A DNA stretch of 24,304 nucleotides, from IMG/VR virus record IMGVR_UViG_642979322_000003. One strand, 5' to 3'. Every line of letters begins with the position of its first letter. The stretch's first letter is position 1. Position numbers: made by a program. Shown here in pieces: positions 12,001 to 15,000 of the stretch. This DNA is from a virus. Lineage: Duplodnaviria > Heunggongvirae > Uroviricota > Caudoviricetes.

Positions 12001-15000
12001 GACTTTGTCATTTTTTGCTTCGCAATATAGCGCAAATTCTTCTTTATCAGTGCTCATTGATAAACCTCATTACAGATTTAAGGGTGAACAAATCCCTGCC
12101 ATTGCTGGCATTTTTAATCCGTTGGTATGGTGTTAATATGGCTGGAGGGTTATCCAGCCGGTGTTTCGTTATTCAGGTACAGCGATACTTTTTTTACCGG
12201 GAGGCATTCACCAGAAATTTTTTGCTCGTCTCTTGCCTGGAGGCAGGATTCTTTACTGGCATAAATTCCGGTAATCACATTCTGTGATTCACCCGTTATA
12301 AGAAAAACCGTCATCATCAGTGCAAATGCTGAAGTCATTGACGTTCTCCGAAAATACCAAGTTCAAGAAGAGCAATTCGGGAAAGTATGGAATTATCATT
12401 GAGCAGATAAGGCTCATATTTCCTCATGTTAATGGCATCTTCAGTAAACTCCCGGTTACTGAGCAGAACACCAATATCAAAACAACCTTCAGACGTATTA
12501 ACGTTTGGTAATAACGTTTCCATTATCGCGTCCTCAACAATGAATTTTGTGATGCAGTGCCTGGTGCCTCCAGGTGACGTTAACCAGTTAACAATTAACG
12601 CCGGATACAGAGAATCCACCCATAACACTGTTTTTGGTTTTAACTGTTCCGCGTGCGCTTAGCCGCATTCACCGCATCACAAAATTCACTTTAAAAAGGG
12701 CGGCAGAGCAGCCACGGAGTAAAACTGATACCGCCAAACGTCACCAGAAAATTGATAACAGAGGGCGTTGCAGCGGGGTTGTCACTTAAGCGTATGGTCA
12801 ACCTGACAACCCGGTGTCCTCAATGGGGAAGGAATAACCCCGCCATACTTACCGCCGCGCCATTTCGCGGAGTGCCACAACCGGAAGCGCACGTTCGAAG
12901 AAATCTAACGACAAGCCTTCTAAGGGAAAGAGCTTCGCCGTACGCTTTCGCGTTATGCACTGACTTTTCAGGGAAATATCCTTTCAGTAAACTGTCAGTA
13001 CCGGATTCTTATCCGTGTCCGGCGCACGACCACACGTGACAGCGTGTTGGTCTCCATTTTTAACCCAGAACCTCAATGGAGGATAAAATGCCAAACAAAA
13101 AAAGAAATCCGCTTATTGAAAAACAGATTGAATGCCTGGTAAATCAACTCAGGCAATCAGGGTTATTAAAAACTCATTCAGAGTTGAGGCTCACAGAATC
13201 AGCATTCGACGATAAATTAAATAATGTCCTTTATAATGGCATTATTGATTTTAATCGTTCTGTTGGTCGCCGCGGCCCTGCTGGTGTTTCCTTATAATTA
13301 CCAGTCAATCCAGAGTGGACCGTGTTCAGCGTAAATATAACTGTACACATCCAGATTATATTTGTGGTCTGTTAAGAACAGGCCGCAAATACATGCCGAA
13401 GCTTCCAGTGCAGCGGCTCTGTTACTGAATAACCATGTAGCAACATTCCAGCGTTTTTCTGCATCCCAGTCTTTCTCAAGGCCTGATACCATGAAGAAAC
13501 CGTTAGTGTTGCCATCAAATAATTCTGTTTCCAAATTTTTAAGCAATGCCTGATGGACTCTTGCCAGGTATTCCGCCGGAATTTCGCCACGAATTCTGAT
13601 GAGATTGTCATAAACAAACATGTTCCCCGCATATGGCGATTTTTCTTTCTTGTTTTTTAAACCAGCATCATGAGCAAACTGATCAATTTCTTCTTCCGTT
13701 GGTTTCGTATTGATGTTTTGCGCTGTCGTTTCTGCAATTTTATTTGCCACACTCTCTGAGTCGTGTTTATTTATAGACGCACAGAAATACAATCCGGTAA
13801 ACGCATCGCGCACATTACGAGCCATATTATCAGTGTCTTTTTTCGTTACCGATTCCAATTCAAGTTCGTTCAGACGATGACGAAGTGTGTGTGCTGCAAT
13901 CTCCTGGATTGAAGGAGGTAAATCTTTAAATTCCATCGTCAACCTCATCAGTCAGTGTTTCTGGCTAACCAGCGACGCGCGCCAGCTTCAGTTTTAAACG
14001 TTTTGCTTTTGGTATACGTCATCGCGGTGAACGTACCGTCCTGGTTGGGGAACACGCCACATACCAGAGATTCGTTGTTGCCAAGATTGAGCGTATCCAT
14101 GTTGACCTCATTTCCCCTTAACGCCGGGGTAGCGGAACAAAAACCTGCTGCATAGTTATTAAAGTTGAACCCTGCCGTCATGTTCTTACGCCTCGGGCTG
14201 GCTACTTAACCCCTGACCACTGCCTGGTAACTCGAAGTATTGCCCTGCATTCTGTGGGGCGGGGTGAGGGAATGAATGAAGTTTAGAAAAACGAACATTT
14301 AAGGTCAATGTTTTTTTATCAAAACATTTTAAGCAGGCAGCTGTTACGCCATCACTACGATGGCATACAGTTAATCAAATAGATGAGGTTGGTTAAATAT
14401 CTTGTTGAATTTTAAAGCATACTCCCAATATGCAAGATAGATCATCCAGCATAATTGAAGGGTAGCGAGGATTCGTGGGGACTAAAAGAATATCCGGCCC
14501 TTCTATCTCCAGTTTGCGAATGACAGGCGTTGTGGTCCCTTTGGGTAAGGCAAGGACAATATTTCCTGGTTGTACGATTCGATCGGGATCAACAAAAACT
14601 GTTGAACCATTTGGGATGGAAACTCCACCACCAGATGTCGACATACTGTCACTCTCTAGAACAACAGCAAAGGTATTGGCCGGGATTTCTCCGACAAGCT
14701 GCACACAAGAGGTTATTGAGGAATTTTTCATATAATCACTCCAGCTTGCTGCCTGCTGAAGTGATAGTAGCGGAACCGTTTTTATCGGCGGTAAAGATAG
14801 ATCAAGCGAATCACCTGTATTTAACTCTCCTCCATTAAGAAGCCAATTTTCGTTTACTTTCAATATCTTTGCCAGTGAACTTATGTAACGCGAGGACGGC
14901 GCTCCTCCACCGTTCATCCATTGACTTACGGAGCCTTTTGATGCGCCAGTGGCATTGACAAGGTCTTTGCCTTTCAAGTTTAGCGCATGCATACGTTGGG

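Follow-up and report, generated by a model that had tools for sequence, protein, structure and literature searches.

DicF small RNA gene, a conserved four-way junction fold and a long terminator-to-leader stem in an untranslated gap upstream of dicB

The stretch of DNA analysed here (the window) comprises 24,304 nucleotides (nt) of a Caudoviricetes genome, IMG/VR record IMGVR_UViG_642979322_000003, and the subject is a gap of roughly 530 bp within it (12541-13075), which an earlier note on the sequence had described as a structured, GC-rich element between two divergent small genes. Those genes are indeed present: dicB, which encodes a cell-division inhibitor, lies on the minus strand at the left as the next operon gene downstream (12335-12523; Pfam PF05358, E 6.4e-37, and RefSeq annotation of an identical O157 record), and an open reading frame (ORF) of 69 amino acids (aa) lies on the plus strand at the right (13088-13297). 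RefSeq annotates nothing between dicB and 13088, which agrees with the view that the gap holds no convincing ORF. Two frames were considered as possible coding sequences and rejected, a 95-aa ORF on the plus strand and a 46-aa ORF on the minus strand (12820-12960), neither of which is conserved as a frame (indels occur and the lengths of the hairpin loops vary); the first runs antisense to the structured RNA described below and has two 1-nt indels in K-12. The description as GC-rich holds against the flanks (approximately 40%) and not against the window as a whole, given that the region has 50.1% and the window 50.2%; the core at 12751-12889 reaches 56.8%.

Very probably, the gap is untranslated minus-strand sequence of an early-left operon of the dicBF type, and this operon belongs to a lambdoid prophage of Shiga-toxin E. 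coli that is Qin-like and defective. The gap is collinear with the Qin prophage of K-12 and identical to the dicB locus of O157, and it therefore corresponds to the "long untranslated region containing dicF", as Balasubramanian et al. worded it for such a gap. The 1051-bp surroundings are 100% identical to chromosomes of O157:H7, O26 and O121, in which dicB, a DUF1482 gene and two hypothetical proteins are annotated, and 4734 of 5426 complete E. coli genomes have some match to the region (megablast). Homology with K-12 Qin begins at approximately 13025 in the alignment and, from there to 12500, identity is 93-100% (93% overall), with no indels between dicB and the structured domain that is called module U in what follows. 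The order of genes in K-12 Qin is dicA, ydfA, ydfB, ydfC, a 340-nt gap, dicF, a 174-nt gap, dicB and ydfD. What had looked like an orphan structured element between genes is a known small RNA (sRNA) gene together with its processing signals; DicF and its processing have already been described, and it is the conserved fold upstream of it that seems not to have been.

The two strands of the region differ in their folding, the minus strand reaching -211 kcal/mol (z -4.97) and the plus strand -179 kcal/mol (z -2.95). The stems contain many G-U pairs, which on the other strand become A-C mismatches; since these pairs exist only in the minus-strand RNA, the stems are RNA signals and not DNA operators. 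The suggestion in the earlier note that the gap might encode a structured non-coding RNA was right in kind, this being DicF and its folded precursor, although neither the RNA, nor its strand, nor the operon had been named.

The 53-nt form of DicF occupies 12750-12698 on the minus strand. The Rfam search that had been proposed as a check, along with comparative folding, matches family RF00039 at 12749-12698 with 75.0 bits, where the gathering score is 48 (E 3.8e-15, covering positions 1-52 of the 52 in the model), and the paired segments are conserved. The RNA begins with the 5' seed UUUCUGGUGACGUUU, continues with the hairpin GGCGGUA.CAGU...GCUG...UGCCGCC and ends in UUUUU, the U-tract extending to 12693; a terminator-like site is also called there by the scan. 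This DicF is collinear with the annotated dicF of K-12 and differs from it by one substitution, located in the terminator stem, and it stands within an early-left operon, with dicB 174 nt downstream and with DUF1391, a cI-like repressor and Cro upstream. DicF represses ftsZ, manX, xylR and pykA, and activates pchA in enterohaemorrhagic E. coli (EHEC). Besides cell division and sugar metabolism it controls, in the case of EHEC, type-3 secretion and Shiga toxin; because it controls these last two, the maturation of DicF copies matters for virulence regulation. Four copies of dicF have been reported in EHEC strains (PMC7873438). In the identical RefSeq record (NZ_CP033605.1) only coding sequences are annotated across the region, and dicF is left unannotated despite its 75 bits to the Rfam model.

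Several forms of DicF have been characterized. The 190-nt and 53-nt species depend on RNase III and RNase E, and the 5' end of the former arises from an RNase III-dependent cut between positions 813 and 814 of the K-12 transcript (PMC10448788), whereas the 72-nt species has a 3' end that is cut by RNase III on the full-length transcript (PMC5069750, PMC9438474). It has also been established that the expression of dicB requires read-through of the DicF terminator (PMC10448788). The enzyme dependence and the RNA sizes used below are those of the literature. A separate observation concerns the seed, in which GGUGACGUU (12745-12737) is perfectly complementary to AACGUCACC of the dicB leader (12581-12573, minus strand). 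A 9-mer match of this kind is close to the chance expectation in 1 kb, and the pairing is probably not a conserved interaction, because the leader segment remains unchanged in loci whose sRNA has a different seed.

Between the DicF terminator and dicB lies the inverted repeat of 14 bp that had been noticed at first. The repeat is real, with GAATTTTGTGATGC at 12542-12555 and GCATCACAAAATTC at 12674-12687, although these positions differ by 1 and 4 nt from those first given and the repeat is longer: its arms are perfect over 15 nt (12541-12555 and 12674-12688), extend to 19 nt at 95% and, in the minus-strand RNA with G-U pairs included, form a stem of 21 bp in the single-sequence fold and of 28 bp in the consensus fold. 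Nor does it flank the whole 530-bp element, as had been thought, since no more than the 110-nt dicF-dicB spacer, at the left end, lies between its arms. It is the sole perfect inverted repeat of at least 14 nt with 3-200 nt between its arms in the window, and first-order Markov resamples of the window contain 0.007 such repeats each, that is, one in 0.7% of trials.

The consensus fold (RNAalifold, 33 distinct dicF-dicB spacers from 70 loci) has 28 nested pairs, which join the U-tract and the next 23 nt to 12559-12531 on the minus strand. The 5' arm (12697-12670) consists of the terminator U-tract followed by AAAGUGAAUUUUGUGAUGCGGUG and includes the right-hand repeat, while the 3' arm (12559-12531), CACUGCAUCACAAAAUUCAUUGUUGAGGA, includes the left-hand repeat and the dicB Shine-Dalgarno sequence GAGGA (12535-12531), which forms the last five bases of the arm and lies 7 nt before the dicB AUG at 12523. 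In every dicF-dicB locus examined the arms span from the DicF terminator tail to this Shine-Dalgarno sequence, and the variation within the stem is mostly compatible with pairing (C-G to U-G, G-U to G-C), with few unpaired cells. The interior of the spacer (12669-12560) contains the hairpins GGCGUUAAUU/GGUUAACGUC (12602-12576) and CCUGG-AGGCA-CCAGG (12574-12560), as well as a segment that varies between loci. The 3' end of the 72-nt DicF maps to approximately 12679 (12750 minus 71), 19 bp up this stem, from which we infer that the long stem is a substrate of RNase III and that its cutting detaches the sRNA tail from the leader of dicB, whose ribosome-binding site is thereby exposed.

The same repeat can be looked at in another way, as a mobile or mosaic palindromic element or sRNA of the STnc100/PasD type which, with the approximately 110 nt inside it, plays no part in DicF or dicB. 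The spacer aligns over the full 206-position STnc100 model (RF02076), with the same outer stem and with the inner hairpin CCnGGAGGCACCnGG, in which CCUGG-AGGCA-CCAGG replaces the CCGGG-AGGCA-CCCGG of the family, a compensatory change from G-C to U-A. STnc100-like copies are also found upstream of tciA in P1 (33.4 bits) and downstream of stx2 (PMC12370729), phages P7 and D6 match the spacer interior alone (blastn against phages), and this interior segment is swapped between loci. The spacer itself nevertheless scores 34.7 bits (12491-12700, minus strand; E 8e-6 when 701 bp were searched and 3.7e-6 when 321 bp were), which is below the gathering score of 47; the arms have no flanking direct repeats and run exactly from terminator tail to Shine-Dalgarno sequence, as already mentioned, and the 72-nt form of DicF has its published RNase III end within the 5' arm. 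The canonical STnc100/PasD copies (Zhu, Shabalina and Storz 2026 preprint) differ in that they belong to late-gene and stx regions, and the Pas sRNAs were rejected as candidates for the same locus, being sited in late-gene regions and not at a dicF-dicB spacer. An element without a role in DicF or dicB is considered unlikely, while kinship with STnc100 and a function as processing stem are not mutually exclusive.

Upstream of DicF, the body of the 190-nt pre-DicF is formed at its 5' side by module U (12881-12767, minus strand), which the RNAalifold consensus folds into a four-way junction, with a closing helix, P0 (12881-12874/12774-12767), and three arms. These are H1 (12870-12866/12859-12855), the H2 arm (12853-12851, 12848-12847 and 12845-12838 paired with 12828-12821, 12817-12816 and 12815-12813) and H3 (12812-12804/12784-12776). 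H3 is the hairpin GGGTTGTCA/TGACAACCC that the first reading of the sequence had picked out, and it is found at 12776-12784 and 12804-12812. The loci compared were gathered by an IMG/VR scan with a 23-mer from the H3 loop, which gave 120 loci and 66-70 distinct sequences; the H3 loop appears invariant because this search pattern fixes it. An earlier scan of genomes with a 16-mer from the same loop returned almost exclusively chance matches in unrelated bacteria, only the one in E. albertii being relevant.

Folded one by one to their minimum energy, most variants other than those of P1 also arrive at this junction. In a MAFFT alignment (A3) 94.3% of the cells are paired, compared with 37-64% when the partners are slid, and 8 pairs have changes on both sides, a number reached by 4 of 500 shuffles; in an alignment fitted to the model (A4) the corresponding values are 94.9% and 14 pairs, with 0 of 500 shuffles and 2-6 pairs in the slid controls, and both sets of figures have to be read bearing in mind that the sequences are related, that the structure was derived from these same sequences and that A4 was fitted to the model. 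Examples of covariation include GUUGUGGC/GCUGCAAC against GUUGUGGU/ACCACAAC in P0, CGGGG/CCCCG against CUGGGG/CUCCAG and CCAGGUG/CACCUG in H2, and GUUGUCA/UGACAAC against GUUGCCA/UGGCAAC in H3. For this last helix RNAalifold had proposed the alternative GGUUG/CAACC, which was discarded, being broken by the changes of the P1 type and of the L149 type; GGGUUGUCA/UGACAACCC was kept because compensatory changes from U-A to C-G in those two types preserve it. The covariance model built for the module (R1) scores 163.8 bits at 12751-12889, and there is a single copy in the window and one per locus. Its resemblance to a cloverleaf is one of shape only: ARAGORN finds no tRNA or tmRNA in the window, and the Rfam tRNA model gives no match at the gathering threshold window-wide, nor any at E up to 5 within 12450-13150. 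Module U is absent from Rfam 15 and seems to be undescribed.

Distant blastn searches against phages show that the 123 nt upstream of DicF (12881-12759) occur alone in cdtI, in Stx2c-converting phages, in 2H10, in a Salmonella phage and in P1, while copies of the full-length region exist in Tritos, mEp460 and others, so the region is a mosaic. The cdtI copy lies approximately 350 nt after cI. That of P1 lies just 3' of the C1-controlled ban promoter and overlaps an annotated "dicF-like region", which resembles the DicF locus in having module U (R1 score 90 bits) and, after it, a linker with an intrinsic terminator; it differs in that there is no DicF match, the linker and terminator are others, tRNA genes follow instead of dicB, and P0 has a different sequence. 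None of the P1, cdtI and Stx2c-type loci of module U matches the Rfam model of DicF. Downstream of the module, all 46 distinct variants (46/46) have a terminator, formed by a hairpin and a T-run, 36-83 nt after it, and both the linker, which in this allele is the DicF seed, and the terminator vary among at least nine alleles. Two observations on particular loci may be added. In the cdtI and Stx2c phages with module U but no DicF (L004 and L005, 39-228, minus strand), matches to C4 antisense RNA and isrK lie on the other side of the immunity region. In IMG/VR contig 2654588054_000006, a natural deletion within the region homologous to 12975-12860 of the window joins the two ACGCGAAA repeats and removes the 3' arm of the hairpin R3 (see below) and the 5' arm of P0, the remaining junction and DicF, with a different terminator, being kept.

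Upstream of module U there is a conserved untranslated block (13027-12890, minus strand; K-12 alignment and fold) that includes one hairpin, ACUGAC...GUCAGU (13001-12957), as well as the 5' side of R3, a predicted RNase III hairpin (12957-12876, minus strand; 5' arm 12957-12933, 3' arm 12900-12876) of approximately 22-24 bp with small bulges. The 5' arm of R3 is the best duplex partner for 12905-12876, at -28.6 kcal/mol, and R3 is the minimum-energy fold in all 37 distinct DicF-type variants (37/37). The 5' end of the 190-nt RNA maps to 12887-12882, in the central helix of R3, the exact position depending on how many terminator U's are counted; this placement is deduced from the 190-nt length and from the 813/814 mapping (PMC10448788). 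The folds of R3 and P0 exclude each other because the 3' arm of R3 contains GGUUGUG, which is the 5' arm of P0. The pairing of 12893-12885 with 12660-12652 was also considered as the RNase III site and set aside, as it has 9-12 bp, would form a pseudoknot across the 28-bp stem and is outcompeted by R3.

These elements suggest an order of events in which we infer three points: the stems at which each enzyme acts, the refolding, and the covering of the ribosome-binding site of dicB. Transcription would start at a repressor-controlled promoter near 14300 and proceed leftward through DUF1391 (ydfA-like) and a 212-aa gene. The hairpin of approximately 22 bp at 12957-12876 would then form, and RNase III would cut it at approximately 12887-12882 to create the 5' end of the 190-nt pre-DicF, which, once freed, could close P0 and complete the four-way junction at 12881-12767 directly upstream of a single-stranded, A/U-rich site. 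RNase E would cut at this site (12751/12750), and the DicF so released would start with its seed. The DicF terminator (12735-12693) is expected to halt most polymerases and to yield the 53-nt sRNA, which depends on Hfq; in transcripts that read through, the U-tract and the next 23 nt would pair with the dicB leader, so that the 28-bp stem covers the ribosome-binding site of dicB, and cutting of the long stem by RNase III at approximately 12679 would produce the 72-nt DicF and also unmask dicB. If this is true, a single RNase III cut both finishes DicF and unmasks the toxic dicB. The coupling of DicF 3'-end formation to the unmasking of dicB by the 28-bp stem may be new.

Several points weigh against this proposal. 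No pair of the 28-bp stem changes on both sides (0 double-side changes among the 33 distinct spacers), and for this reason the stem is conserved yet not proven by covariation; in the R3 arms the variation is likewise limited to one-sided, wobble-compatible changes with 0 compensatory ones, and the conservation of both structures could reflect recent common descent. The base of the long stem, over the Shine-Dalgarno sequence, consists of weak U-G and U-A pairs. The cut sites have been placed through published RNA lengths and are accurate to a few nucleotides, and this includes the position of approximately 12679 within the 28-bp stem. In the minimum-energy fold of the 190-nt RNA of this allele and of K-12, GGCGGUAAGUAUGGCGGGGU (12856-12837) forms 18 bp with 12720-12699, in the 3' half of DicF, at the expense of an intact junction and terminator, a pairing that could keep the precursor inactive and that does not appear in the minimum-energy folds of the other alleles examined. 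Finally, the plus-strand ORF interrupts the operon and the prophage is defective, read-through from the early promoter being assumed.

A broader proposal, which is offered as tentative, is that DicF represents one allele of a family of phage "sRNA cassettes", each composed of the module U scaffold, an exchangeable seed and an exchangeable terminator, and that the scaffold acts either as a maturation platform or as a stable 190-nt RNA with a function of its own. The scaffold is common to Qin-like prophages and to phages of the P1 and the cdtI/Stx2c types, with at least nine seed and terminator alleles. If the proposal holds, phage sRNAs that differ in their seeds reuse one four-way junction as scaffold. 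The conservation of the scaffold across differing seeds may be new.

The conserved fold could also be interpreted as a cis-acting RNA for the control of transcription, acting as a riboswitch-like sensor or as a put-like processive antiterminator, that sets the ratio of DicF to dicB and the downstream early genes at the terminator. Its multiple helices, the invariant loops and junctions, and the intrinsic terminator that follows within 36-83 nt in every variant are what such an element would have; in P1 and in the cdtI/Stx2c phages module U opens an early operon under repressor control, dicB needs the read-through of the terminator (PMC10448788), and 12856-12837 is able, in this allele and K-12, to form 18 bp with the terminator's 3' half. 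This antiterminator pairing, however, is confined to the canonical DicF allele: it is missing from the minimum-energy folds of the others, and in L149 and L244 the terminator covaries internally (GGUGG/CCACC) while the upstream GGCGG stays fixed, the terminator of P1 being unrelated, so that a conserved antiterminator, which does not follow any of these changes, was rejected. A put antiterminator RNA of the HK022 type was rejected as well, as put is an element of approximately 70 nt with two stems, present in both early operons (PMC9378689), in contrast with a junction of approximately 115 nt that occurs once per phage, and HK022 reaches at most 11.5 bits with model R1 with the filters off. 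Moreover, in Qin-like loci module U lies approximately 800 nt from the promoter. A role of this kind is regarded as unlikely.

That the gap holds divergent promoters and operator palindromes for dicB and the plus-strand small gene, as had also been suggested, is highly improbable: the two genes do diverge across approximately 560 bp containing palindromes, and an earlier study proposed a promoter upstream of dicB (cited in PMC10448788), but the promoter scan shows no excess (3 sites in 2.2 kb against 3.7 expected from shuffled sequence), places none for dicB and has its site near 13060-13089 overlapping the ATG of the plus-strand ORF, the repeats are strand-specific, requiring minus-strand G-U pairs, and have 110 nt between their arms, a spacing that does not resemble that of operator half-sites, primer extension and reverse-transcription PCR in K-12 gave no evidence of an internal promoter (PMC10448788), the K-12 counterpart of the stretch lies within a transcript whose start is upstream of ydfA, and the repressor, Cro and operator region lie at 14280-15365, with the only plausible early promoter at 14308-14280.

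At the right end of the gap, the imperfect palindrome reported at 13030-13050 is present and folds as a 9-bp bulged hairpin (13052-13028). It does not belong to the block homologous to Qin but to another mosaic segment, common to phiP27 and some Stx phages (blastn), and it is not called by the terminator scan. The 69-aa ORF, annotated by RefSeq as a hypothetical protein, bounds the region and is outside the DicF unit. This orphan gene has GGAGG 5 nt before its ATG and matches phrog_4274 (function unknown, E 1e-51), with no Pfam match, no tblastn match in deposited phages and no usable site in the promoter scan; its homologs occur only in Escherichia and Salmonella, with 77-100% identity. It runs opposite to the early-left operon, and its stop codon abuts that of a 212-aa minus-strand gene.

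The immunity region is found 1.3-2 kb rightward of the gap and consists of the promoter-like site (14308-14280, promoter scan), a cI-like repressor gene beside it (14393-15031, minus strand, 212 aa; Peptidase_S24 and HTH_3, the latter with 21.5 bits, just under the cut-off) and a P22-Cro-like gene (15123-15365, Pfam). Pfam matches in the window include DicB, DUF1482, DUF1391, this 212-aa repressor with HTH and S24 domains, and the P22-type Cro. The identical RefSeq record annotates a "LexA family protein" that covers only the 112-aa C-terminal part of the 212-aa repressor ORF, the start codon of which may have been mis-called there. The prophage is considered defective because of insertion sequences (IS) and of the truncated recE and integrase in the identical O157 record, a degraded lambdoid prophage with IS66 within IS256, truncated recE and int, and also dicB, DUF1391, the LexA-family protein, Cro, YdaT and replication genes. 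In the window, ISEc8 (IS66 family) is located inside an IS256-family transposase pseudogene (6585-8918 and 10813-12057). Two further RNAs score above their Rfam gathering thresholds: the ALIL pseudoknot, a frameshift signal of the IS3 family (19838-19954, minus strand, 121.5 bits), and the sok antitoxin RNA (21272-21446, plus strand, 113.5 bits), which implies a hok/sok module.

The closest known system is the dicBF operon of K-12 Qin (RF00039; Faubladier 1990; Balasubramanian 2016; Ragunathan 2023), which has the same sRNA with one substitution. The two share the untranslated block, dicF, a spacer of approximately 174 nt, dicB and ydfD, as well as DUF1391 as first gene and a comparable repressor/Cro pair. 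They differ in that the window has a 212-aa protein and the opposite-strand 69-aa ORF where Qin has ydfB and ydfC, in its repressor, of the cI/LexA type with an S24 domain instead of DicA, and in its host, a Shiga-toxin E. coli with multiple copies of dicF.

With respect to maturation, the proposed pathway is similar to those of MicL and CpxQ, sRNAs of 3'UTR or intra-operonic origin that RNase E frees from an operon transcript by cutting a single-stranded site beside a stable structure, with a terminator as their end, although here the adjacent structure is a large, separately conserved four-way junction and an RNase III step would come first. The leader of lambda N (pL) is another precedent, as it contains a long-range stem in an early-left transcript whose cutting by RNase III is thought to relieve the occlusion of a ribosome-binding site. 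By analogy, the long stem described here would be a lambdoid early-left stem directly upstream of a small regulatory gene, without any sequence relation to that of lambda and with a 5' arm that doubles as the tail of an sRNA terminator; a single cut in it may thus provide, at the same time, the 3' end of an sRNA and the 5' end of an mRNA.

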